In this document: positions 1,824-56,700 of the stretch, piece by piece
Numbering within the stretch: position 1 is the stretch's first letter
Layout: each line of letters begins with the position of its first letter
NCBI GenBank assembly: GCA_039683515.1
Contig: JBDKRG010000040.1
Span: 1,751-65,750, forward strand
Reading direction: 5' to 3'
Length of the DNA stretch: 64,000 bases
From: Candidatus Sumerlaeia bacterium
Lineage (GTDB): Bacteria; Sumerlaeota; Sumerlaeia; MVZB01
Notes under the pieces: generated by a model
Told to the model about the DNA's origin: nothing
The model's database searches: none
Seen by the model: only the letters and a program-made list of their open reading frames with translations
Translations under genes and position numbers: made by a program

Positions 1824-1852
1824 GCCGGGTTCGCCGAACAGATGGGCGTTCG

Positions 1853-2060
1853 TTTTTGCGCTGAAGGCGCAAGAGATAATAGCCTGGGGCAGAGCGAAGC
1901 GACGCCCCAGGTGATGAGCGAGAGTGAATAGAAGCTCTGAAAGAGCGGAAGAAAGTTTCTTTCGCGCCTTCAGCGCTTCGGTTGAATTTTCTCGACCTGA
2001 CCTGGGGTTTCGCTTCGCTCCACCCCAGGCTATATTATTTCGCGCTTTCAGCGCTTCGGA
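1853..2060. repeat. ~208-bp structured intergenic repeat element (family 1, copy A), MITE/REP-like
   Basis: About 85% identical to 21754-21960. It is built of modules that recur in inverted orientation: gcgctgaaggcgc / gcgccttcagcgc and cctggggc..gccccagg / its exact reverse complement. It sits immediately after the truncated post-stop hairpin motif of rlmN. Confidence 0.8.
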
Positions 2061-2074
2061 ACGAGCGAACTCAC

Positions 2075-4432: not shown

Positions 4433-4469
4433 TGATGCCGTGGTCCGTGCCGGTCCGTGCCCGTCCGTG

Positions 4470-5846
4470 TCAGTCCGTGCCGGCCCCTTGAATCGGCAGC
4501 GCGAACGCGAACGTCGTCCCCACGCCGACGCGGCTCGTGACCCAGATCCGCCCGCCGTGCGCCTCGACGATCCGTTTCGCGATCGCCAGCCCCAGGCCCG
4601 TGCTGCGCTCGCCGGCGGTCGGCTGCGTGCTGGTCTTGCCGAAATCCGAAAACAGCCCCGGCAGCTCGGCCTGCGGGATCCCCTGCCCCTGGTCGATGAC
4701 CGAGATCACCACCTCTCGGTCCTGGCCCGCGCACGACAGCGTGATCTCGGTCTCGGGGTGCGAAAACTTGATCGCGTTGGTGATCAGGTTGCTCAGCACC
4801 TGGCCGATCCGGTCCGGGTCGAAACGCGCGGCCGGCGGCGCCGACTCCTCGTCCAGTTTGATCCGGATGAACTTGGCGCGCGCGAGCAGCTCGTGCGACT
4901 CGACCGCCTCGCGCAGGAATTCGCCCAAGCCGACGTCGCTCGGGTTCAGCTCGATCCGCCCCGATTCGATCATCCCGATGTCGAGCGTCGCGTCGATCAG
5001 CTTGGTCATCGCGATGCACTTGGCGTTCATGCGCTCGAGCAGCGCGCGCTGGTTGGGCGGCACCTCGCCGACGATCCCGTTCAGAAACAGATGCAGGTAG
5101 CCGCGGAAAATGCCGAGCGGGCTGCGCAGGTCGTGCGCCGTCATGGCCACGAACCGGTTCTTGACCTGGTTCAGGTTGTAGAGCTCTTCATACAGGCGGC
5201 TCTTTTCGATGGCGAGCGCGACCTGCCCGGCGATCTGGCGGAACAGCCCCACGTGCGCGTCGCGATACGTCCCGGCCGCGGTCGACGAGAAGAACAGGAA
5301 CCCGATCGGCTTGCCGTTGGCGACGAGCGGGCAGGTCAGGCTCGAGCGGATCCCCTCGCTCAGGATCCGGCGCGTCGAGTCGGACTCGGGGTGGGCGGCC
5401 AGGTGCGCCTCCAGGTCGTTGATGATGCGCGGCTCGCCGGTCTCGATGATCCGCCGCAGGCTGCTCCCCTCGAGCGGCGCCTTGTAGCCGGCCGGCAGCC
5501 GCACCTCGTCGTAGCCGGCGCGCGCCCAGCGCGAGTAGACGTTCTCGCCGCCCTCGTCGAGCAGCGCCAGCCCGATGCGCTGATACGGGATGATCGCGTG
5601 GCACGAGTCATAGATGTAGTTGAGCACGTCCTCGAGCATCAGCCCGGCGTTGATCCGCTCGGTGATGGCCAGCAGCCGGCTCATTTCCGCAAAGCGCGCC
5701 TGCATGATCTGGCCCAGGTCGATGAGGATCTGGCCGAGGCCGGCGAGGTCGTCGCGCGGGTCGAGCGGCAGGTCCAGGTTGAACTCGCCGCGCTTGAGCG
5801 CCATCGCCGCCTCGCGGTAGATCGAAATTTGCCGGTCCCGTTCCAT
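4470..5846 (-). CDS. GAF-domain sensor histidine kinase
   Basis: Has a HisKA H-box (AMTAHDLRSPL) and HATPase_c N/G boxes (NLITNAIKFS, DQGQGIP, GLGLAIAKRIVEAHGGRIWV). Start set at MERDRQ (complement of 5844-5846). The C-terminal codons are encoded by the (gtccgtgcc)n repeat. Confidence 0.9.
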   Translation of the reverse strand: MERDRQISIYREAAMALKRGEFNLDLPLDPRDDLAGLGQILIDLGQIMQARFAEMSRLLAITERINAGLMLEDVLNYIYDSCHAIIPYQRIGLALLDEGGENVYSRWARAGYDEVRLPAGYKAPLEGSSLRRIIETGEPRIINDLEAHLAAHPESDSTRRILSEGIRSSLTCPLVANGKPIGFLFFSSTAAGTYRDAHVGLFRQIAGQVALAIEKSRLYEELYNLNQVKNRFVAMTAHDLRSPLGIFRGYLHLFLNGIVGEVPPNQRALLERMNAKCIAMTKLIDATLDIGMIESGRIELNPSDVGLGEFLREAVESHELLARAKFIRIKLDEESAPPAARFDPDRIGQVLSNLITNAIKFSHPETEITLSCAGQDREVVISVIDQGQGIPQAELPGLFSDFGKTSTQPTAGERSTGLGLAIAKRIVEAHGGRIWVTSRVGVGTTFAFALPIQGAGTD

Positions 5847-21632: not shown

Positions 21633-21673
21633 AAAGCAGGCGAACCCCACGGGGTGTTCGCCTGCTTTTTTTT
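21633..21673 (+). terminator. Rho-independent terminator
   Basis: Stem aaagcaggcgaac / gttcgcctgcttt with loop cccacgggg, followed by an 8-T run. Confidence 0.8.
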
Positions 21674-21753
21674 CCATCACGGCGCCATCGCCTCCAGTGC
21701 GCACCCATGCCCGCGGCCTAGTACCACTCTGCCACTCCGCACGATCAGCTTTC

Positions 21754-21960
21754 TTTTTGCGCTGAAGGCGCAAGAGATCATAGCCTGGGGCGGAGCGAAG
21801 CGCAGCCCCAGGTCACGAACCGCACCCAACCGGAGCTCTGAAAGAGCGAGAGAAATCGGCTTCTCCCGCGCCTTCAGCGCTCCAACGATATTGCGTCGTT
21901 TACCTGGGGCTGCGCTTCGCTCCGCCCCAGGCTGTACTCTTACGCGCTTTCAGCGCTTGG
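21754..21960. repeat. Structured intergenic repeat element family 1, copy B
   Basis: Aligns with 1853-2060 along its length: the same modules gcgctgaaggcgcaagagat..atagcctgggg, agctctgaaagagcg, cgcgccttcagcgc, cctggggytgcgcttcgctcc.ccccagg and cgcgctttcagcgctt. Confidence 0.8.
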
Positions 21961-22298
21961 GATCGCTTGCATCTCAAAACATACGACCTATGGCAGAGCA
22001 GTAATAGAGCACTTGACCAAAGTTATCGGTTCGCGTTCGTGCTCGTGCTCGTGCTCGTAATCGAATCAGCACCAAGCTTCGAAACCAAGCCCCGTCTCGA
22101 TTACGGCGATTGCCGTAAGACTTTCACTCGTTCCGGGTTCGCAATCCAAAGCCGGCTGTGTCATCGCTAGCCACCGCCGCACCGCCTCTGTGTCCTTTCG
22201 ATCCACAACGATCTCCCTGCCGCAACCCGTCTGCCTCCACCTCATCGTTTTTTCCTAATATATTCGTGCTTTTCGGCCCGCCGGCGCCTCCGCGCGAG

Positions 22299-22315: not shown

Positions 22316-22416
22316 ATCTCCTATGCGCGTCGAGGCCGAATCAGCGGAGCACGCTCGAGGCCTCGGCCCTCGGGGACCGCCACCCGATGCACCCCTTGAT
22401 TCAGGAGGATTGGATC

Positions 22417-22884
22417 ATGTCATTCGCATGGGATCCTTTCCGTGAAATGGAGTCGCTCCATCGCGAGATCGACCGTCTGTTCAATCAGCCCCACTGGCAG
22501 TCCCACTGGCGCACGCCGCTGAGCCGCGTCTCGTTCCTGCCGGGGCTGTCGGCGCGGGCCTACCCGCTCCTGCGGCTCGACGACCAGGCCAACGAGATCG
22601 TCGTCGAGGCCCTGGCGCCCGGGGTTGACGTGGATTCGCTCAAGGTATCGGTCGTCAACCAGCAGCTGCGCATCGAGGGGACGAAGCCCGCCCCCGCGGG
22701 CATCGAAGCCGAGGCGTATCACCGCAACGAACGCTCGGCCGGCGCCTTCGTGCGCATCCTGTCGCTGCCGGCCTCGGTCAACCCCGACAAGATCTCGGCC
22801 GACTACAAGAACGGCGTCCTGTCGATCCGGATGCCGAAGGCCGAACACGCGCGGCCGCGCCAGATCTCGGTCAACGTCCAGTAG
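22417..22884 (+). CDS. Hsp20/alpha-crystallin small heat-shock protein
   Basis: Alpha-crystallin domain features: the WDPFREM start typical of bacterial sHSPs, and a C-terminal GVLSIRMPK pattern. Confidence 0.85.
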   Translation: MSFAWDPFREMESLHREIDRLFNQPHWQSHWRTPLSRVSFLPGLSARAYPLLRLDDQANEIVVEALAPGVDVDSLKVSVVNQQLRIEGTKPAPAGIEAEAYHRNERSAGAFVRILSLPASVNPDKISADYKNGVLSIRMPKAEHARPRQISVNVQ

Positions 22885-22918
22885 CCCGAGCGTAATCCTT
22901 CATACGGAGGTAATTAAC

Positions 22919-23323
22919 ATGGCAGAGAATACAATCCAAACCACGGGCAACGCCGTCGCCGAAGCCGCGCGCACCCCGTCCGTAACCCGCGACGAGGAAC
23001 GCTACCAGGTCCCGCCCGCCGACATTTTCGAGACCAACGGCGACCTGACCGTCGTGGCCGACCTGCCGGGCGTGGAGAAGGACGGCCTCAAGGTGCGCGT
23101 CGACGACGACGTCCTGACCATCGAGGGCAAGGTCCGCCACATGGAGAAACGGGCCAACCTCATCAACGAGTTCGAGCTGGTCGATTACTTCCGCCAGTTC
23201 CGGTTGAGCGAGGAAATCGACCGGGAGAAGATCTCGGCGGAGCTCAAGAACGGTGTCCTGACGCTGAAGCTTCCCAAGGCCGAAGCCGCCAAGCCCCGCC
23301 AGATCGAAGTCAAGATGGCGTAA
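22919..23323 (+). CDS. Hsp20/alpha-crystallin small heat-shock protein (second copy)
   Basis: PADIFETNGDLTVVADLPGVEKDGLKVRVDDDVLTIEGK ... AELKNGVLTLKLPK is the canonical alpha-crystallin domain pattern. RBS ggaggt upstream. Confidence 0.85.
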   Translation: MAENTIQTTGNAVAEAARTPSVTRDEERYQVPPADIFETNGDLTVVADLPGVEKDGLKVRVDDDVLTIEGKVRHMEKRANLINEFELVDYFRQFRLSEEIDREKISAELKNGVLTLKLPKAEAAKPRQIEVKMA

Positions 23324-23373
23324 GTAGATTGCGGATTTCGGATTGCGGATTGCGGAATTAATAATTCAATTGG

Positions 23374-24458: not shown

Positions 24459-26096
24459 ATGACAGGCGGCAACGTTCTTAATCGTGTGATCAAAACGCTG
24501 GGCATCGGCTCGGCTCTGGCGGCCATGGCCATCAGTTCCATCATGGCCGGAGCCCAGGCGCCGACCACCGGCACCACGGCCGCGGCCAAGCCGACCACCG
24601 GCACGGCCGCCGTTGCGCCGGCCCCCTCGCTCGTCGCCGACACGATCACGATCACCACCGACACCAAGCCCCTGATCCAGAACATGCTCGAGGCGACCAC
24701 GGGCACCCAGACTCAGCCCCAGACGACCATCGGCTCGCAAATCGTCTCGGCCACCTCGGGGACGCTCAGCGGCGCCTCGCAGACGCTGGCCGACATTCTC
24801 GGCACGACCGGCACCACGCCGTCGACGACGGCTCCCGCCGAAGTCGCCGCCCCGCAGGCCCCGGCGATCCCGACGACCGGCGCCGCCGTCGCCCCGCCCG
24901 AGGGCGAAGAGCCGGTCTACATGCAGAAGCGCGGCGAAATGCGCATCTTCGACCCGGGCCGCGGCGAAGGCGTCAGCCCGCTGCAGCAGGCCGTCCAGCA
25001 GATGCGCGAGCAGACCCTGGCCGAGCGCAAGCCGATCCAGAGCCGCGTTTACGACATCGCCTCGTATCACTACGTGATCGAGGGCAAGGACGAGGCCAGC
25101 GCGGTCCGCGAGGCCGAGCTGCGCGCCCTGATGTCCGCCTCGGCGCGGCTTTATTTCGGCGACAAGATCATTATCGGCCGCGAGCTGCTCCGGCCGTACC
25201 TGGCCCGCTCCGGCGAGAAGGCGATCGCCGACGTGGTGATCGACCGCCGCCCGCACGTCCTGGCCGACGGCAAGCTCCAGATGCCGATCCGGGTCAGCGT
25301 CAACGTCCCGATGCTCTTCCAGGACCTGGCCGACAAGCAGTTCGTCGCCGAACCCAACATCCGCCCGCGCATGACGATCCACGTCCGCGAGATGGTCGAT
25401 GGCAAGCCGGCCTCCTCCACGCCGGGTGCCGACCGCCTGACCTCGACGATGGAAAACAACCTGTTCCGCATCCACTCCAAGGAGATGGAAAAACCCGCGC
25501 TCAACATCGACCTCTCCAAGGACGCCGGCCAGTTCCAGACCGCCCGCCTCGAGGCCGAGCGCAACAACATCGATGTCATCCTGACCGGCTCGATCAACAC
25601 CCTGCCGATCACCACCGGCCAGATCCTGTACGATACGTATCACTTCTGGAAGACCGACCTCGACCTCTACCTCTACCGCGTCGACAACGGCGAGTTGGTC
25701 GCCCACCTTCAGGATTCGTATTCGGCCGCCGGCGACAGCACCGAGCACGCCATCGCCAAGACGCTCGACGTCATGGTCGGGCGCACCGGCGGCAAGCTCG
25801 CGATGATCCTGCGCGACGTGTGGCCGAGCACGATGCTCAACGAGATGGATTACCGCCTGATGATCAGCGGCGTCGACCTCGCCCGCCTCGGCCACATCGA
25901 GTCGATGCTCAAGGCGCTGTGCCCGGAGATGCGGATCTACCGCAAGGCGTTCTACGGCGACGTCGCCGTGATCAACATCGTCCTGCCCGAGGGCAAGACG
26001 ATCGACCTCGGCGGCTTCCTGCGCCGCGCGACCGACCCGCAGCTCATCGTCCGCCGTTACGACGACCGCCACTACGAGATCGAACCGATCGGTTGA
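24459..26096 (+). CDS. Hypothetical secreted protein with a Thr/Gly-rich N-terminal low-complexity region
   Basis: Signal peptide MTGGNVLNRVIKTLGIGSALAAMAISSIMAGAQA, then T/G/A/P-rich spacer, then a ~350-aa globular region with no motif I recognise. Confidence 0.6.
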   Translation: MTGGNVLNRVIKTLGIGSALAAMAISSIMAGAQAPTTGTTAAAKPTTGTAAVAPAPSLVADTITITTDTKPLIQNMLEATTGTQTQPQTTIGSQIVSATSGTLSGASQTLADILGTTGTTPSTTAPAEVAAPQAPAIPTTGAAVAPPEGEEPVYMQKRGEMRIFDPGRGEGVSPLQQAVQQMREQTLAERKPIQSRVYDIASYHYVIEGKDEASAVREAELRALMSASARLYFGDKIIIGRELLRPYLARSGEKAIADVVIDRRPHVLADGKLQMPIRVSVNVPMLFQDLADKQFVAEPNIRPRMTIHVREMVDGKPASSTPGADRLTSTMENNLFRIHSKEMEKPALNIDLSKDAGQFQTARLEAERNNIDVILTGSINTLPITTGQILYDTYHFWKTDLDLYLYRVDNGELVAHLQDSYSAAGDSTEHAIAKTLDVMVGRTGGKLAMILRDVWPSTMLNEMDYRLMISGVDLARLGHIESMLKALCPEMRIYRKAFYGDVAVINIVLPEGKTIDLGGFLRRATDPQLIVRRYDDRHYEIEPIG

Positions 26097-26215
26097 TCCG
26101 ATTGCGGATTGGGGATTTCGGAATGCGGATTTCGGAATTGATTCCGGAATCCGCATTTTTCTTTCAATTCCGCAATCCGCAATCCGAAATCCGCAATTCC
26201 AATTGGCAGTCGTTC
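26096..26215. repeat. Palindromic array of (gcggatt)-type heptamers forming a long imperfect hairpin
   Basis: cgattgcggattggggatttcggaatgcggatttcggaattg | attccggaatccgcatttttctttcaattccgcaatccgcaatccgaaatccgcaattccaattgg. A related half-array occurs at 23328-23378. Confidence 0.85.
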
Positions 26216-26780: not shown

Positions 26781-26884
26781 AAAACGGCTTCCCATGTCGT
26801 GCTCGTGTTATGACGAAAAGATGTTGGAAGTCCTCGTGCTCGTGCTCGTGCTCGTGCTCGTAATCGTAATCGAAGATCAAACTT

Positions 26885-28184: not shown

Positions 28185-28340
28185 AGTCCTGAGTCCTGCG
28201 TCCTGAGTCCTGAGTAAAAATATGTCCAGCACTCAGGACTCAGCACTCAGGACTCAGCACTCAGGACTCAGCACTCAGGACTCAGCACTCAGCACTCAGG
28301 ACTCACCACTCACCACTCAGCACTCAGGACTCAGGACTCT
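28185..28340. repeat. Heptamer array: (agtcctg)4, spacer, (sactcag)~16, forming an inverted-repeat hairpin and ending at the rnj start codon
   Basis: tcctgagtcctgcgtcctgagtcctgagt aaaaatatgtccag cactcaggactcagcactcagg...gactcaggactcttcATG. Confidence 0.9.
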
Positions 28341-28342
28341 TC

Positions 28343-30067
<1,725 letters not shown>

Positions 30068-30429: not shown

Positions 30430-30593
30430 TCGATCTTAACTCGAGCAACCGGGCAATTTCAATTCGGACGGGCACTCAGGACTCAGGACTCGGCACTCAG
30501 GACTGTATTGACTCCCCCGCCGTTTTTAAGTCAAAATAGATTCGGCACGCCTTGATTTCCCTCTGCCACCAGCCATCCAGAAGGGCCCGGTCC

Positions 30594-35444: not shown

Positions 35445-35656
35445 AAGCTCACCTCCCGAGAGATTATCCCCGCGCACCGTAATCGTGCTCGTGCTCGTGC
35501 TCGTAATCGTAATCGTAATCGTAATCGTGAGATTTCCCCACCATGATGCGCCCGGCATTCACTCCGGGGCAAGCCAAAATGCACCCCAATGCGCCCCAAA
35601 AAGAAATCGCCTCCAGCCATGCTGAAGGCGAACTCACAAACGGGTGACACTCGAAA

Positions 35657-39427: not shown

Positions 39428-39555
39428 CTTCGAGCGGCCCCTGCGGGAGCCGAAACCGAATCTCCTTAAACCGCCGTTTTCGCCCCGCGTCCAGCCGCGG
39501 CGCATGGTTTCACTATAGCCGTTTACGTATTCCCAAACAAGCCATGATCACAATT

Positions 39556-39650
39556 ATTATCGTGCGTCGTAATCGTGCTCGTGCTCGTGCTCGTAATCGT
39601 AATCGACTCGACTCGACTCGACTCGTAATCGAATCGAATCGAATCGAAAC
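39556..39650. repeat. Compound hexamer repeat (gtaatc)(gtgctc)3(gtaatc)2(gactc)4(gtaatc)(gaatc)3
   Basis: cgtaatcgtgctcgtgctcgtgctcgtaatcgtaatcgactcgactcgactcgactcgtaatcgaatcgaatcgaatcg. Same family as 22031-22060, 26826-26880, 35468-35530 and 42228-42272. Confidence 0.9.
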
Positions 39651-42156: not shown

Positions 42157-42277
42157 TAAAATGATGGTGACTTATTGCACAGGGCCAAGTAAAGACAAAT
42201 CAGAAGTATAGGGGCGGCCTTCATATTTTTCGTGCTCGTGCTCGTGCTCGCAATCGTAATCGTAATCGAATCAACAG

Positions 42278-42934: not shown

Positions 42935-42973
42935 CGTCCGTGCCCGTCCGTGCGGGTCCGTGCCTGTCCGTGC

Positions 42974-44389
42974 TTAATTCTCCGCCTGCACCTGGCTCGG
43001 CGTAATCTCGATCATCCCCATATCCTCGGGCAGCGTTTTCTTGACCGCGATCCCGAGTTCTGGGAATTTGCGCGCCGTCACCATCAGCCGCGACTCGATC
43101 GACGAGACTGCGGCATTATAACTCTTCACCGCGTTCTCGAGGTTCGACCCGACCTTGCCGATGTGCTCGATCACGACCGCGAGCCGCTCGTAGAGCTGGC
43201 TGCCGAGCTCGCTGATCTGCTGCGCCTCGCGCGCGATGAGCTCCTGCCGCCACCCCATCGCCACCGTCCGCAGCAATGCGAACAGCGTCGCCGGCGTGGC
43301 GAGGATCACCTTGCGCTCGAAGCCCTTTTCGATCAGGTCGGGCTTGTGCTCGGCGGCCGCCGCGAGGAATCCCTCGCCGGGGATGAACATCACGACGAAC
43401 TCGGGCGCGGTCTTGAACTGCGCCCAGTAATCCTTCTGCGAGAGCTTTTCGAGGTGGCCCGCGACGTGCTCGGCGTGGCGGCGCATGTGCGCGCGGCGCT
43501 CTTCGGGGTCGGCCGAGTTGATCGCGTCCATGAACGCCACGAGCGGCGTCTTGGCGTCGATCACGATCGAGCGCGCTTCCGGCAGGTTCACGATCATGTC
43601 CGGCCGCAGGCGCCCGTCCCCGGTGCCGACGCTCACCTGCTCCTCGAAGTCGCAGTGCTCGACCATGCCGGCCAGCTCGACCGCGCGCCGCAGCGTGACC
43701 TCGCCCCACCGCCCGCGCACCTGCGGCGCGCTCAGTGCGTGGACGAGCTTGCGCGTTTCCTCATTCAACCCGCGCTGCGACTCGCCGAGCGACTGCACCT
43801 GCGCGCGCAGCTCGCCGTAGGCCGACTCGCGCAGCGTCTCCATGCCGCGGATCTGTTCCTCGTAGCGCTTGAGCTGCTCGCGCAGCGGCGCGACGAGCTC
43901 CGCGACCGCCTGCTGGCGTTTTTCCAATTCCGCCTTCGATACTTCCTGCGCCGCCCCGAGCCGCTCGCCCGCGAGCTTCAGGAACGACTCGCTGTTCTGG
44001 TCCAGGGCCTGCCGCGCGATGACCGAAAACGCCTCCGACAGCTTCTTCTTCGTATCCTCAAGAAGCGCCAGTTTTTCCTGCGCCGCCTTGCGCTCCTGCT
44101 CGAGCGCCGTCTGCAGGCTCGCAGCCGATTCAATCCGCAGCTTGAGCTGGCCGTCGAGATTCGCAATTTGATTTTCAAGCAATGGGATGCGGGATGCTTC
44201 GGTTTCAGCGACATGAACCTTGCCCAGTAACTCTTCGATGCGGGCGGTAAGAGCAGACGTGTTCTTTTCCTCTTCTACGAGCTGTACCGTGCGTTCGGCG
44301 AGTTCGCGGCTCATTGGTCGCATCAATAGGTAAACAATCACGCCCGTCACTAAACAACCGGCAATGAACAATCCCACGTAGATAACCAT
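42974..44389 (-). CDS. rmuC: DNA recombination protein RmuC
   Basis: N-terminal TM helix, long coiled coil, and the conserved RmuC C-terminal domain (RGRWGE..L.R, PDMIVNLP, VIDAKTPL, VVMFIPGEGFL). Confidence 0.9.
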   Translation of the reverse strand: MVIYVGLFIAGCLVTGVIVYLLMRPMSRELAERTVQLVEEEKNTSALTARIEELLGKVHVAETEASRIPLLENQIANLDGQLKLRIESAASLQTALEQERKAAQEKLALLEDTKKKLSEAFSVIARQALDQNSESFLKLAGERLGAAQEVSKAELEKRQQAVAELVAPLREQLKRYEEQIRGMETLRESAYGELRAQVQSLGESQRGLNEETRKLVHALSAPQVRGRWGEVTLRRAVELAGMVEHCDFEEQVSVGTGDGRLRPDMIVNLPEARSIVIDAKTPLVAFMDAINSADPEERRAHMRRHAEHVAGHLEKLSQKDYWAQFKTAPEFVVMFIPGEGFLAAAAEHKPDLIEKGFERKVILATPATLFALLRTVAMGWRQELIAREAQQISELGSQLYERLAVVIEHIGKVGSNLENAVKSYNAAVSSIESRLMVTARKFPELGIAVKKTLPEDMGMIEITPSQVQAEN

Positions 44390-50621: not shown

Positions 50622-50716
50622 CCAATGGCCGGCGGGGGCGCCGGCCCCACATCGAAAACAGCTGTTCAGTAGCGAATAGCTCATCGCACTGTGGCGCCGG
50701 CGCCCCCGCCGGCGAT
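50622..50716. repeat. ~95-bp palindromic repeat element (family 2, copy 1)
   Basis: ccaatggccggcgggggcgccggcc...ggcgccggcgcccccgccggcgattcc. The reverse complement is ~85% identical to 55352-55447. The wider insert is bracketed by direct repeats gccgggttcggcggac at 50552-50567 and 50753-50768. Confidence 0.75.
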
Positions 50717-50847
50717 TCCTGTTGCCGTAAAACTTATGACACTCGCCCTCATGCCGGGTTCGGCGGACGCGGCCTACTTTCTCATTTCTCATTTTGCGTT
50801 TTAATTGCATGATAATGAGGAGCAGCCGGGCGGCTGCATCCTATTGA

Positions 50848-52251: not shown

Positions 52252-53088
52252 ATGTCAGGCATGCTTCAGTTCACCGTCGACGAATCGCTCTGCACGCGCT
52301 GCGGCGAATGCGCGCGCGACTGCCTCGCCGGGATCATCCGGCAGAAGGGGAACAAGCTCCCCTCGATCAACGCGGACCTGGAGCCGCTGTGCATGAAGTG
52401 CCAGCACTGCCTCGCGGTCTGCCCGACGGGGGCGATTTCGATTCTCGGGAAAACCGCGGACGGCAGCGAGCCGCTCGATCTCGGCCGTTTTCCGAGCCTG
52501 GACCAGATGTCGCACCTCGTCCGCGGCCGCCGCAGCGTCCGCCAGTACAAGCAGGAAAACGTCAACGCCGCGCTGATCAAGCGCATCCTGACGACGCTCG
52601 CCCACGTACCGACCGGCGGCAACGCCTGCGAGCTGACGTTCACGGTGATGGGCGACATCGACGCCATGCGCCGGTTCGAGCGGGAGATGATCGCGGCGAT
52701 CCGGTCGGCGAACATGGGCGGCGGGCTGCCGGAGCGCTACCGGCCGATAATGGAGCTCGACGACGACAGGCTCGCCGCGCGGCTGTTCCGCGGCGCGCCG
52801 CACTTCATCGTGGCGTCGGCCCGGCCCGACGCGCCGTGCCCGGCCGAGGACGCCGCGCTCGCCATCGCCAACTTCGAGCTGCTGGCCCTCAGCGCGGGGC
52901 TGGGAAGCGTCTGGTGGGGGTTCTTCAGGATGTTCTCGACCGCGATCCCCGGGCTCAAGACGATGCTGGGCATCCCCGAGGACCACGTGCTGTCGGCGGC
53001 GCTGTTCGGCCACCCGGCGGTCCACTACGCCCGGACGGTGCAAAAAGCCGACGCGGCGGCGATAAGAGTCCTGAGTGCTGAGTGCTGA
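52252..53088 (+). CDS. 4Fe-4S ferredoxin domain fused to a nitroreductase-family domain
   Basis: CTRCGECARDC...CMKCQHCLAVCP (two Cx2Cx2Cx3C motifs), then a nitroreductase fold (RRSVRQY...). The last ~8 codons and the stop lie inside the (ctgagtg)n repeat. Confidence 0.75.
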   Translation: MSGMLQFTVDESLCTRCGECARDCLAGIIRQKGNKLPSINADLEPLCMKCQHCLAVCPTGAISILGKTADGSEPLDLGRFPSLDQMSHLVRGRRSVRQYKQENVNAALIKRILTTLAHVPTGGNACELTFTVMGDIDAMRRFEREMIAAIRSANMGGGLPERYRPIMELDDDRLAARLFRGAPHFIVASARPDAPCPAEDAALAIANFELLALSAGLGSVWWGFFRMFSTAIPGLKTMLGIPEDHVLSAALFGHPAVHYARTVQKADAAAIRVLSAEC

Positions 53089-53133
53089 GTCCTGAGTGCT
53101 GAGTGCTGAGTCCTGAGTGCTGAGTGCTGAGTC
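53066..53133. repeat. Heptamer array (ctgagtg/ctgagtc), about 9 units
   Basis: tcctgagtgctgagtgctgagtcctgagtgctgagtgctgagtcctgagtgctgagtgctgagtcg. It overlaps the 3' end of the nitroreductase gene. Confidence 0.9.
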
Positions 53134-53380
53134 GATGGGCGATTACGCTGTTACGGCTGAATTTGAACGTAAGATGCGCACAAATTTTCATGACCAACGC
53201 GGTAGGATCACAACCCAGCCCCGGCCGGGGCTTTGGTTTCAAAAATGTAATCCGCTCCACTCACATATGCGAGATGGTTATGGCCACGCCAGCTTAGGAT
53301 TCCAATATACGATCGATTTGACAATTGCGCGCGTCGGTTTTGTCGAACCGATCAATCGGTTCGGGTTGATGCGATCTTGA

Positions 53381-53419
53381 CCGTGGGTTGAATCGCGAAA
53401 ACAGCGATTCAACCCACGG
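53381..53419. other. Perfect 16-bp-stem hairpin in a 510-bp lower-GC intergenic region upstream of mreC
   Basis: ccgtgggttgaatcgc gaaaaca gcgattcaacccacgg. No flanking U-run on either strand. A second hairpin, cgaaccgat-caa-atcggttcg, lies at 53344-53363. Confidence 0.5.
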
Positions 53420-53598
53420 CTTTGGAGGTCGAACCGCTGACGCGGTTCTTGAGCAACGGTATTTGGTTCTGGCTATGCCAACTTACGATTGCGAGCACGA
53501 GGACGATTTGCAGCTTCACCTCGCCCTTTCCAATTCGGGCGCATTGATGGTATGAATGGGTCGGTCTGGATTCGAAGCGCCACGGCCGCGTTTGGGCC

Positions 53599-55351: not shown

Positions 55352-55447
55352 GAAATCGCCGGCGAGGGCGCCGGCGCCACAGCGCGACAAACTATTCGGC
55401 ACTGACCAGCTGACTTCGATGTGGGGCCGGCGCCCCCGCCGGCCATT
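55352..55447. repeat. Palindromic repeat element family 2, copy 2 (inverted orientation)
   Basis: ggaaatcgccggcgagggcgccggcgccacag...gatgtggggccggcgcccccgccggccatt, matching the reverse complement of 50622-50716. Confidence 0.75.
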
Positions 55448-55476
55448 CACGCATCATTCTTGTCAACCACTCCAGT

Positions 55477-56457: not shown

Positions 56458-56574
56458 GTTGCAGTTTGCCACCGTTTCTCGTGCTCGCCTTGCCAGCCGA
56501 AGCCGCGGCGAAGCGAGCCATTCAAATTGTCACCCCGAAAGAGCGGCATCGTGGAGGATCGATCCGCGCTTTCT

Positions 56575-56700
56575 TGAACTATCTCGCCCTTTCAGGGCTC
56601 GCATCGAAATTTCCGCCCAACCCAGGGTTTCGCTTCGCTTCACCCTGGGCTTTTGAACTATACGACCCTTTCAGGGTCTCACCCCTCTTGAAAGTTTGCG
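56575..56700. repeat. Diverged partial copy of repeat family 1
   Basis: ctttcagggctcgc...ccagggtttcgcttcgcttcaccctgg...ccctttcagggtctcac. It shares the cctgggg-cgcttcgct-cccagg hairpin and tttcag modules with 1853-2060 and 21754-21960. Confidence 0.5.

Follow-up and report, generated by a model that had tools for sequence, protein, structure and literature searches.

Inverted doublets of an Acido-Lenti-1-like structured unit in a Sumerlaeota bacterium and their relation to Y1 transposase genes

Intergenic copies and their three-hairpin unit

In the window, i.e., the whole 64-kb stretch of Candidatus Sumerlaeia DNA analysed here, the spacer between rlmN (plus strand) and a Cu-oxidase_4/YfiH-like gene (plus strand) is filled by a structured repeat (copy c1) that starts 30 nt past the rlmN stop codon and ends ~8-15 nt ahead of the start of the YfiH-like gene. 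A second copy (c2) is located between a preceding 59-aa lipoprotein-like ORF and the following hsp20, and a third one (c3) downstream of a kinase-like gene and upstream (5') of a minus-strand 2-hydroxyacid dehydrogenase gene. The original prediction had placed one family of structured elements at these three loci, all of which are present, and had described each copy as lying immediately downstream of a gene; this is correct for rlmN and the lipoprotein-like ORF, but not for the dehydrogenase gene, at the 5' side of which c3 is found. The repeats are composed of a ~115-nt unit that comprises, in this order, a hairpin H2a, a ~22-nt spacer, the 29-nt hairpin H1, an invariant dinucleotide CT, a ~10-nt linker, and a hairpin H2b. 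Searching the window with a model of the unit (R1) returned five matches at 78-94 bits, and the density amounts to 5-6 units per 64 kb. The features are as follows (H1 pattern: CCYRGGGnnnCGCTTCGCTnnnCCCYRGG):

1845..2067, no strand: copy c1, head-to-head inverted doublet of the ~115-nt unit, filling the rlmN / Cu-oxidase_4 spacer
1845..1961, minus strand: c1 left unit, R1 89.2 bits; in minus-strand order H2a 1934-1946, H1 1883-1911, CT, linker, H2b 1858-1870
1949..2067, plus strand: c1 right unit, R1 94.1 bits; H2a 1964-1976, H1 2001-2029, CT, linker, H2b 2042-2054
21746..21969, no strand: copy c2, inverted doublet whose two H1 are exact reverse complements
21746..21862, minus strand: c2 left unit, R1 90.1 bits; H1 21784-21812, outer H2b 21759-21771
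21853..21969, plus strand: c2 right unit, R1 89.9 bits; H2a 21868-21880, H1 21903-21931, H2b 21944-21956
56571..56690, plus strand: copy c3, single unit (monomer) of a second subfamily, R1 78.3 bits; H2a GCCCtttcaGGGC (56586-56598), H1 CCCAGGG...CCCTGGG (56621-56649), H2b GACCctttcaGGTC
53332..53459, plus strand: probable divergent fourth unit, R1 19.8 bits, E ~0.008 by a rough calibration
1883 (minus), 2001 (plus), 21784 (minus), 21903 (plus), 56621 (plus): sites of the H1 pattern
1858 (minus), 1964 (plus), 2042 (plus), 21759 (minus), 21868 (plus), 21944 (plus), 56586 (plus): small GSSCYTTCAGSSC hairpins

The five sites of the H1 pattern compare with none expected from 100 shuffles of the window. 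In an alignment of c1 (1853-2060) with c2 (21754-21960), 166 of 212 columns are identical, which corresponds to 78% and not to the ~85% over ~205 bp that had been judged by eye; an ungapped stretch of 102 nt reaches 82%. The limits set by the model (1845-2067 and 21746-21969) are slightly wider than those first proposed. Modules that reappear as their reverse complement, as had been noted, were confirmed, and the anticipated long stem-loops were recovered as well, with each doublet folding as a single strand into one long hairpin (c1: -68.1 kcal/mol, z = -9.8; c2: -86.4 kcal/mol, z = -15.2). Copy c3 had been regarded as a partial copy that shares the core hairpins. The hairpins are indeed shared, but c3 is a complete half-unit rather than a degraded remnant, and the alignment shows that each of its stems is altered compensatorily relative to c1 and c2. 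The probable fourth unit at 53332-53459, which is intergenic according to the ORF map, retains the layout H2a - H1 - CT - H2b with a 16-bp H1 stem (CCGTGGGTTGAATCGC/GCGATTCAACCCACGG) and H2 stems GAACCG/CGGTTC. Ahead of c2, a hairpin followed by a T-run is present at ~21637-21672, the loop of which is too long for the terminator scanner used around this copy.

Spread, covariation and the Acido-Lenti-1 motif

The part of the unit that consists of H1, linker, and H2b equals the Rfam family RF01687 (Acido-Lenti-1), a candidate sRNA described by Weinberg et al. 2010 (PMC2864571), the function of which is still called unknown in a 2026 preprint. Two copies in the window score above the gathering score of 37, namely the right arms of c1 (2001-2055, plus strand; 47.6 bits) and c2 (21903-21957, plus strand; 44.2 bits), while both left arms remain below it (36.2 bits at 21758-21812, minus strand, for c2 and 18.6 bits for c1) and c3 is unreported by RF01687 even at E<=10. 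In the cmscan alignments, model positions 1-46 are covered and all pairs are formed, with an H1 loop that is 11 nt longer than the consensus. The family is recognised by an 8-bp hairpin, a conserved GCUA...UAU..CG linker, and a 5-bp hairpin followed by CU, all of which occur in the window matches. In Rfam, it spans 46 positions and is labelled as an sRNA gene without function, and its seed alignment already contains tandem arrays and genomes with multiple copies. The full unit differs from it by a third hairpin, H2a, ~22 nt upstream, by the inverted doublets and Y1-gene flanks (see below), and by a range of phyla that reaches far beyond Acidobacteria and Lentisphaerae.

Among the matches listed, more than 117 loci contain the H1 hairpin, and they represent at least 10 phyla. 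A local duplication, which had been named as the outcome that would undermine a mobile family, is therefore rejected. Many genomes contain monomers, doublets, and tandem or head-to-tail arrays of units. The arrays (periods of 53-79 nt) superficially permit a CRISPR-like reading, which was discarded because what would be the spacers corresponds to conserved parts of the unit itself, namely its linker and an H2 hairpin.

The structure of the unit is conserved by covariation, a check that had been recommended at the outset. Across 132 units from many phyla, 93% of the stem cells are paired as compared to 81% in shuffles and 23-59% in slid controls, and 298 double-change cells were counted where 93 are expected. 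At the foot of H1, conservation above 90% is limited to AG (CT on the Rfam strand). Accordingly, the four bases ahead of H1 on the complementary strand read NNAG, most often AAAG (25 of the 132 units) and ATAG (24), followed by GTAG (12), TCAG (12), TTAG (10), and others. The H2 loops on the Rfam strand are often UUCG/UACG/UCCG-like. Strand asymmetry was dropped as an arbiter between RNA and DNA, as the counts of G-U and A-C pairs proved uninformative (10 vs 9 in H1, with A-C commoner in H2b).

Units are coupled to Y1 transposase genes in a fixed geometry

The REP-associated, TnpA-type transposase that the original prediction had suggested to look for was found in the form of Y1 (IS200-like) genes flanked by inverted units. 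When all 2287 ORFs of 117 loci with the H1 pattern were clustered, the sole recurrent specific neighbour was a Y1_Tnp protein of ~150 aa, encoded in 7 of the 117 loci; in six of these seven, the gene is immediately bordered by units that point outward. The reverse test started from 81 metagenomic loci chosen solely by similarity of the Y1 protein, and 77 of them contain units. On the downstream side, a sense unit is present in 51 of 75 loci, mostly starting -7 to +25 nt from the gene end, and on the upstream side an antisense unit ends just ahead of the start codon in 52 of 77; both flanking units occur in 39 of 71 loci, and units in the wrong orientation in 7 and 5 loci only. In 46 of 70 loci, the two flanks of the Y1 gene match each other as inverted repeats, as compared to 11 in which direct repeats fit better. 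At the Y1 gene of locus L134, even RF01687 alone gives matches above the gathering score on either side, at distances of 55 nt and 51 nt. Close inverted pairs of the CGCTTCGCT H1 type are without exception in (-,+) geometry (7/7), but this is no rule for all doublets, since around Y1 genes (-,+) and (+,-) doublets are mixed (17 vs 12).

The exact CGCTTCGC core appears in only few of 80 Y1 loci. This sparseness could be mistaken for a failed reciprocal test, an interpretation that was overturned because the flanks consist of the unit with a lineage-specific H1. The sequence of H1 varies freely between Y1 lineages, as would be expected if each enzyme had its own cognate site.

For the organism of the window, the cognate transposase is inferred from a relative. 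A tblastn search of the 64-kb window revealed no Y1 gene, and a search for the organism's own genome matched only short Logan contigs. The closest genome relative, MAG bin.378 (RlmN 83% identical), contributes one of the Y1-bearing pattern loci (L066), and the H1 that flanks its Y1 gene is identical to the H1 of c2. The best Y1 relative, P0002, stems from a sample (SRR32314411) that also contains a 97%-identical rlmN locus; as the H1 flanking its gene is a shorter variant, it is at most a candidate for the cognate enzyme.

The partner protein is ~150 aa in length (150-181 aa aligned) and carries the motifs DHVH and WQ(R/S/I)GY, the catalytic Tyr and Gln within (R)YIxNQEEHH, and a conserved tail that ends in Y(D/N)E(R/A)Y(V/L)W(D/E). 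All proteins score above the cutoff of Pfam PF01797 (Y1_Tnp; 44-88 bits). The NCBIfam model NF033573 (transpos_IS200, cutoff 55 bits) gave 71.6, 65.5, 53.3, and 26.1 bits, whereas the RAYT model NF047646 remained far below its cutoff (18.4 vs 80 bits). The closest solved structure is of IS200 type (2xma, E = 1e-7), and the protein resembles IS200 TnpA. Judged from published motifs, it matches TnpA_Y1 subclass 1.2 (Quentin, Siguier, Chandler & Fichant 2018, PMC6006769) in DH[IV]H, WQ, and a YIKNQKEHH-type Y...Q..HH signature as well as in length and C-terminus (~148 aa with a conserved tail there, ~150 aa with a ~30-aa tail here). This subclass was reported, mostly from Cyanobacteria and Bacteroidetes, to lack REPs and IS-type terminal structures (PMC6006769); here, in contrast, structured inverted units border the majority of such genes, and many other phyla are involved.

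Origin of the window doublets and their closest known systems

The orthologous intergenic site is empty, occupied by a monomer, or occupied by a doublet across relatives. The rlmN-yfiH spacer measures 251 nt with a doublet in the window and in contig L200, 221 nt with one unit in L202, and, where no unit is present, 69 nt in L201 and 36 nt in L204/L205. The relatives with empty sites (~82% at the protein level) are too diverged for junction mapping. At c1 and c2, neither a clear target motif nor the target-site duplication that had been proposed as a diagnostic was consistently found. With an identity of only 78%, these copies give no sign of recent transposition in the window. Across c1 and c2, left arms resemble left arms (80% identity) and right arms resemble right arms (75%) more than left arms resemble right ones (69-74%), so that the doublet is the entity that was copied.

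Units flank Y1 genes in inverted orientation, and the doublets of the window are thus arranged like the two flanks of a Y1 gene without the gene itself, just as REPINs relate to RAYTs. Since the unit flanks a small IS200-like Y1 gene in many phyla, the element is most likely a mobile element of the REP/REPIN kind and not an sRNA gene, and we consider it likely that each doublet is a gene-less counterpart of a REPIN, built from a structured DNA unit of ~115 nt that is tied to Y1 transposases. From the earlier suggestion of a MITE/REP/Correia-type element, the REP-type interpretation is hence supported, whereas a Correia MITE of the DDE type with terminal inverted repeats and target-site duplication is not.

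By analogy to IS200/IS605 TnpA and to TnpA_REP acting on REPs, the hairpins may extrude where DNA is single-stranded, such as at replication forks. A Y1 protein encoded elsewhere in the genome could then bind H1 and would cut and rejoin the strand beside it, near CT. In this way, it might act in trans to excise or copy units or doublets, or to insert them between genes, mostly at gene 3' ends. Such a mobilisation of units by Y1 is what we infer. If transcribed, the hairpins would probably also affect mRNA ends as a side effect.

It appears unlikely that the unit is primarily a structured RNA, i.e., an sRNA or an element of 3'-UTRs with a role in transcript stabilisation or termination, with only a secondary link to Y1. 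The two RF01687 matches above the gathering score, the strong covariation, and the consistent sense orientation of the unit downstream of Y1 genes would all agree with such a role, and so would the UNCG-type H2 loops, which fit selection on RNA, and the preference for gene 3' ends (23 of 60 units lie between convergent and 6 of 60 between divergent genes). However, next to co-directional neighbours units are sense in 13 and antisense in 18 cases by rough gene calls, hence without sense bias, doublets display both orientations, and c3 lies antisense to the genes on either side. Furthermore, G-U pairs are no more favoured than A-C pairs, a scan around c2 revealed no promoter- or terminator-like sites, and an RNA role leaves unexplained why units are arranged around a transposase gene in a fixed inverted geometry. 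The structured-RNA part of the original prediction has a known label in RF01687, to which the outer half belongs, although no sense bias is seen in how units are oriented towards genes.

Slightly less probable still is that the doublets are inert relics of full-length Y1 elements that lost their gene by internal deletion and are immobile for want of a cognate enzyme in the genome. The modest identity of the copies, the absence of a Y1 gene from the window, and a doublet geometry equal to the two flanks of such a gene are all compatible with this scenario. The doublet of bin.378, however, has the same arm-specific inner hairpins as c1 and c2, which suggests that a gene-less doublet was copied and not that three deletions occurred independently; stems maintained by compensatory change, the occurrence of monomers, doublets, and tandem arrays across many genomes, and a flanked Y1 gene with identical H1 in the closest relative likewise speak against mere relics.

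A DNA element that is selected by the host, for instance because a nucleoid or topology protein binds to it or because recombination takes place there, and that spread by recombination as proposed for BIMEs is improbable: while a 29-nt H1 that is nearly invariant in at least 10 phyla and the intergenic, 3'-end-biased placement could be accommodated, no candidate host protein was linked to the unit, the Y1 transposase is its only recurrent specific partner, and H1 differs freely from one Y1 lineage to the next. A classical Correia-like MITE with terminal inverted repeats, a DDE transposase, and target-site duplication is hardly tenable despite the matching size (~210-220 bp), inverted termini, and intergenic location, given that no direct repeats flank c1 or c2, ORF clustering revealed no DDE transposase recurring near copies, monomers and head-to-tail arrays occur, and the partner gene encodes a Y1/HUH enzyme.

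The REPIN-like mobile element favoured here has one of its closest counterparts in the REPtron, i.e., REPIN or REP together with a RAYT (TnpA_REP) (Nunvar 2010; Bertels & Rainey 2011, PMC3116915; Ton-Hoang/Corneloup, PMC8266576), in which RAYT genes have associated REPs at their flanks (PMC3116915, PMC3733652) and hairpins of single-stranded REPs are processed by the TnpA_REP of E. coli (PMC8266576). Shared features are short structured intergenic repeats that occur as singles, as inverted doublets forming long hairpins, and in clusters, their preferential location downstream of genes, a small Y1/HUH protein gene between inverted copies of the repeat, and NNAG ahead of the hairpin on the complementary strand (GTAG in Bryobacterales copies). 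REP/REPIN-RAYT systems comprise tens to hundreds of repeats per genome and a single-copy, vertically inherited transposase. The differences are a ~115-nt unit of three hairpins instead of a single 20-40-nt palindrome, the lack of a conserved GTAG 5' of it (see the counts above), a partner that is no class-2 RAYT (YIxNQEEHH instead of Y..NP, and the low NF047646 score), and hosts from Acidobacteriota, Planctomycetota, Verrucomicrobiota, Bacteroidota, Sumerlaeota-like bacteria, and others rather than mainly Proteobacteria.

The TIRtron/TIRYT systems (Di Nocera, De Gregorio & Rocco 2013, PMC3733652) likewise place a tyrosine-transposase gene between long inverted repeats, which can belong to moderately abundant genomic families present as singles, dimers, or groups, and Acidobacteria are among their hosts. 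All TIRYTs aligned there (aba 1552, aba 3477, tsa 392, and others) nevertheless have the class-2 Y..NP motif (Tyr plus NPV), as opposed to Y...Q..HH in the partner protein, which on comparison of motifs is not equated with these TIRYTs; the three-hairpin unit is undescribed and Acido-Lenti-1 unlinked in that paper. With IS200/IS605 elements (subclass 1.1 TnpA; IS608, ISDra2), the system has the closest structure and, for those proteins that reach its cutoff, the IS200-type NCBIfam model in common, as well as hairpins beside the gene ends and, by analogy, an expected single-strand chemistry. Their left- and right-end hairpins, however, lie on the same strand without terminal inverted repeats, unlike the predominantly inverted flanks observed here, where gene-less copies are also dispersed.

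With some reservation, we propose that Acido-Lenti-1, rather than being an sRNA gene, could be the end recognised in a second partnership of the REPIN/RAYT type, which would have evolved independently, involve the 'orphan' TnpA_Y1 subclass 1.2, and span at least 10 phyla. The REPIN-RAYT relationship has so far been worked out mainly in Gammaproteobacteria; if the proposal is true, it would also apply to another enzyme subclass with a more complex repeat and to many phyla that have received little study. An orphan Rfam family without an assigned function since 2010, which genome annotations still interpret as a regulatory ncRNA, would gain a concrete, testable candidate function. Likewise, a candidate DNA substrate would become available for the small Y1/HUH proteins of a widespread class that had been characterised as similar to IS200 but devoid of IS and REP properties. 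The near base-for-base identity of one H1 variant across phyla would point to either frequent transfer of the enzyme together with its site between phyla or recruitment to a conserved host function that involves single-stranded DNA. In the same reading, the partnership would range from Acidobacteriota of soil to Prevotella and Akkermansia MAGs of the gut. On the practical side, the units are open to mis-annotation as sRNA genes, and they break short-read assemblies, as illustrated by contig L200, which terminates within one.

One unit, singly and in doublets

The three repeat loci of the original prediction are all present in the window, where a probable fourth joins them:

1853-2060 (1845-2067 by model): c1, inverted doublet between the two plus-strand genes rlmN and Cu-oxidase_4
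21754-21960 (21746-21969 by model): c2, inverted doublet after a 59-aa lipoprotein-like ORF and before hsp20
56571-56690, +: c3, single unit between two minus-strand genes, 5' of a 2-hydroxyacid dehydrogenase gene
53332-53459, +: probable divergent fourth copy, intergenic

Aligned over their full lengths, c1 and c2 agree in 166 of 212 columns, that is, 78 % instead of the roughly 85 % estimated by eye, which is still far above chance. Rather than being assembled from unrelated modules, the repeat consists of a single kind of unit, about 115 nt long, which on one strand comprises a small hairpin (H2a, e. g., GCGCcttcaGCGC), a spacer of about 22 nt, the 29-nt hairpin H1, an invariant CT, a linker of about 10 nt, and another small hairpin (H2b) that shares its stem with H2a. 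In c1 and c2, two units face each other head to head, which places the H2a hairpins at the centre and the H2b hairpins towards the outer ends. The H1 pattern (CCYRGGGnnnCGCTTCGCTnnnCCCYRGG) is matched five times in the window as compared to zero times in 100 shuffles, and its two copies in c2 are exact reverse complements, as had been noticed for the modules of the element. The anticipated folding into long stem-loops likewise holds, since single-stranded c1 (-68 kcal/mol, z = -9.8) and c2 (-86 kcal/mol, z = -15.2) each form one long hairpin.

Locus c3 had been taken for a diverged partial copy; the repeat is indeed there, but as a complete single unit that represents a second subfamily, all its stems differing from those of c1 and c2 by compensatory changes (H1 stem, CCTGGGG/CCCCAGG to CCCAGGG/CCCTGGG; small-hairpin stems, GCGC/GCGC to GCCC/GGGC and GACC/GGTC). 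R1, a covariance model spanning the whole unit, returned exactly the five known units of the window (78-94 bits) plus one weak extra match, the probable fourth copy (19.8 bits, E about 0.008), which, read by eye, keeps the unit layout with a longer H1 (16-bp stem) and other H2 stems (GAACCG/CGGTTC). Between c1 and c2, left arms are 80 % and right arms 75 % identical, as compared to 69-74 % for left versus right arm within one copy, and in both copies alike each arm has its own type of inner hairpin; it was therefore the whole doublet that was duplicated.

The motif itself is already known and catalogued as Acido-Lenti-1 (Rfam RF01687). In the right arms, this family covers H1, linker, and H2b with 47.6 and 44.2 bits, above the gathering score of 37; the left arms, matched on the opposite strand, reach 36.2 and 18.6 bits. 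Its first description placed it in Acidobacteria and Lentisphaerae as a probable non-coding RNA, sometimes near group II introns, and went no further (PMC2864571 and supplement); a 2026 preprint still calls its function little known. Tandem arrays and many copies per genome are already visible in the seed alignment. Across 132 units, 93 % of the pair cells are standard versus 81 % in shuffles, 298 are changed on both sides versus 93 expected, and pairing falls to 23-59 % once partner columns are slid, so that the unit structure is under selection. Counts of G-U versus A-C favoured neither strand in these 132 units. The complement of the H1 tip includes GCGAAGC, a sequence described as forming an unusually stable mini-hairpin in DNA.

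Y1 transposase genes between inverted units

Beyond the window, an exact scan with one genome per species found the H1 pattern in at least 117 loci of many phyla, among the matches listed Acidobacteriota (including Bryobacterales and Pyrinomonadaceae), Planctomycetota, Verrucomicrobiota, Lentisphaerota, Bacteroidota (Prevotella and others), Hydrogenedentota, Ignavibacteriota, Armatimonadota, Sumerlaeota, and others. Nearly all copies listed have the full three-hairpin layout. In the searchable literature, we found neither a description of the three-hairpin unit nor an account of this wide phyletic range. The 29-nt H1 with its CGCTTCGCT tip recurs near base for base in MAGs of at least ten phyla, including gut Prevotella and Akkermansia, unlike the small hairpins and linkers, which are genome-specific (L002-L118, loci from other genomes); this near-invariance points either to transfer of site and enzyme between phyla or to an unusually strong constraint on the tip. 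Head-to-tail arrays also occur (L022, 2473-2827; L070, 33-234; Lentisphaera, Rfam seed coordinates), where the H2b of one unit doubles as the H2a of the next with a period of about 79 nt; tighter arrays have a period of 53 nt, and the Rfam seed has periods of 74, 110, 115, and 192 nt.

When all 2287 ORFs of the 117 H1-pattern loci listed were clustered, the sole recurrent neighbour besides three generic families (ABC-transporter-like, protein-kinase-like, and response-regulator-like) was a specific protein of about 150 aa, present in seven loci. It matches Pfam Y1_Tnp (PF01797, up to 88 bits), has ISDra2 and IS608 TnpA as its closest solved structures, and reaches the NCBI IS200 model in two of four members. 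In its alignment, DHVH (the HUH motif) and WQ.GY are seen together with RYIxNQEEHH, whose Tyr and Gln have a spacing of four residues, as in IS608 TnpA. These correspond to the key motifs of TnpA_Y1 'subclass 1.2' (Quentin et al. 2018, PMC6006769), described there as IS200-like, of low copy number, without IS-type terminal structures, and labelled 'REP: no', whereas most of the Y1 genes found here are flanked by structured units. A link between Acido-Lenti-1 and this subclass was not found in the searchable literature.

In six of the seven Y1 loci, the stop codon is directly followed by a unit in the same orientation as the gene, and wherever upstream DNA is available, a second one lies just 5' of the start on the opposite strand. 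One of the seven (L066) belongs to MAG bin.378, the closest available genome relative (RlmN 83 % identical); the H1 beside its Y1 gene is identical to that of c2, and a further bin.378 locus (L044) carries doublets with arm-specific hairpins matching c1 and c2.

The association also holds in reverse. A metagenome scan from the Y1 protein alone yielded 80 loci (with L199, 81 loci and 302 kb), in which 200 unit matches were found, 77 of the 81 having at least one. Units were assigned to a flank if they started within -15 to +80 nt of the gene end (mostly -7 to +25) or ended at equal distance from the gene start:

Unit starting at the Y1 gene end: expected orientation in 51 of 75 evaluable loci, opposite in 7
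Unit ending at the Y1 gene start: expected orientation in 52 of 77, opposite in 5
Both flanks in expected orientation: 39 of 71

By chance, a unit of given orientation would fall into a 95-nt interval in an estimated 0.4 % of cases, at the window density of about 0.09 units per kb. With no model involved, one flank of about 100 nt is the inverted repeat of the other in 46 of 70 loci, and folding these flanks yields the three-hairpin unit, with an H1 sequence that is specific to the lineage. Rfam RF01687 matches adjoin Y1 genes as well, for example, 55 nt after and 51 nt before the gene in L134.

Evidence of gain and loss at the rlmN spacer

The rlmN/Cu-oxidase_4 gene pair is kept in relatives, and the spacer between them varies in length and content, the unit being present in some and absent from others:

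Window: 251 nt, doublet
L200 (RlmN 97 % identical): contig stops inside the element; same doublet sequence as far as present
L202 (bin.378; RlmN 83 %): 221 nt, single unit
L201 (RlmN 83 %): 69 nt, without unit
L204 and L205 (RlmN 82 %): 36 nt, without unit

These spacers are too diverged for junction mapping, and neither c1 nor c2 shows an evident target-site duplication. The L200 contig (Logan SRR32314411, contig end, 3069-3153) stops within the first H1 of the doublet, and these repeats therefore break short-read assemblies. The source lineage is poorly sampled, with 64 % G+C: the nearest named relatives of its RlmN (732-1823) are Candidatus Sumerlaeota/BRC1 MAGs at only 50-59 % identity, and the closest genome by this protein (83 %) is the unclassified 'bacterium' MAG bin.378 (GCA_021372575.1).

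Interpretation, gene context and other repeats

The evidence best supports reading the 208-bp repeat as a gene-less doublet of Y1-transposase unit ends, which relates to the Y1 unit as a REPIN (inverted REP doublet) does to a REP-flanked RAYT (REP-associated tyrosine transposase) gene. The system works like both REPIN/RAYT and TIRtron/TIRYT. It falls outside the RAYT family proper, because most copies lack the GTAG foot and the protein does not reach the cutoff of the NCBI RAYT model (18 bits versus 80), nor is it a classical IS200/IS605 element, because the Y1 flanks are inverted; TIRYT proteins (Di Nocera et al.) differ in their motif. The data show the coupling to Y1 genes and its geometry, the conserved structure, the duplication of doublets as wholes, and the presence/absence polymorphism; the mechanism is inferred. 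Judging from the precedents of IS200/IS605 TnpA and of E. coli TnpA_REP, which processes single-stranded REP hairpins in vitro (PMC8266576), the Y1 protein would bind H1 when this is extruded as a hairpin on single-stranded DNA, and would cut and rejoin the strand beside it.

The main rival is that the motif acts as an RNA. This may be an additional role, since UNCG-like sequences are found in many H2 loops on the Rfam strand; however, it leaves the transposase geometry unexplained. Moreover, 60 isolated units lie in convergent (23), co-directional antisense (18), co-directional sense (13), and divergent (6) positions by rough ORF-based gene calls, and thus favour gene 3' ends without a sense bias relative to neighbouring genes, which argues against an obligatory sense-RNA function. 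The preference for 3' ends is shared with REPs (PMC3733652).

As for gene context, c2 does follow the small lipoprotein-like ORF as first described, but c3 lies upstream, not downstream, of the 2-hydroxyacid dehydrogenase gene. About 80 nt ahead of c2 and 3' of the lipoprotein-like ORF, a strong hairpin followed by eight T (21637-21672, +; gcaggcgaac-cccacggggt-gttcgcctgc-tttttttt) looks like an intrinsic terminator, which a simple terminator scanner missed because of its 10-nt loop. Two adjacent hsp20-family genes (22387-22884 and about 22900-23323; family by Pfam) have a 97-nt stretch in common at 73 % identity.

Many intergenic regions furthermore contain short tandem repeats from a few recurring families, one hexamer array lying about 60 nt downstream of c2:

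28185-28345, 30470-30525, 53067-53140: heptamers CAGCACT/CAGGACT
22030-22063, 26820-26872, 35463-35527, 39553-39605, 42210-42262: hexamers GTGCTC/GTAATC
23327-23366, 26086-26139: GATTGCG-type heptamers
4443-4486, 42936-42979: GTCCGTGCCN decamers

A second structured repeat pair (50624-50718 and 55354-55448; 95 nt, 75 % identical), each copy a long GC-rich palindrome (AATGGCCGGCGGGGGCGCCGGC ... GCCGGCGCCCCCGCCGGC), is unrelated to the 115-nt unit and gives a weak miRNA-like Rfam match.
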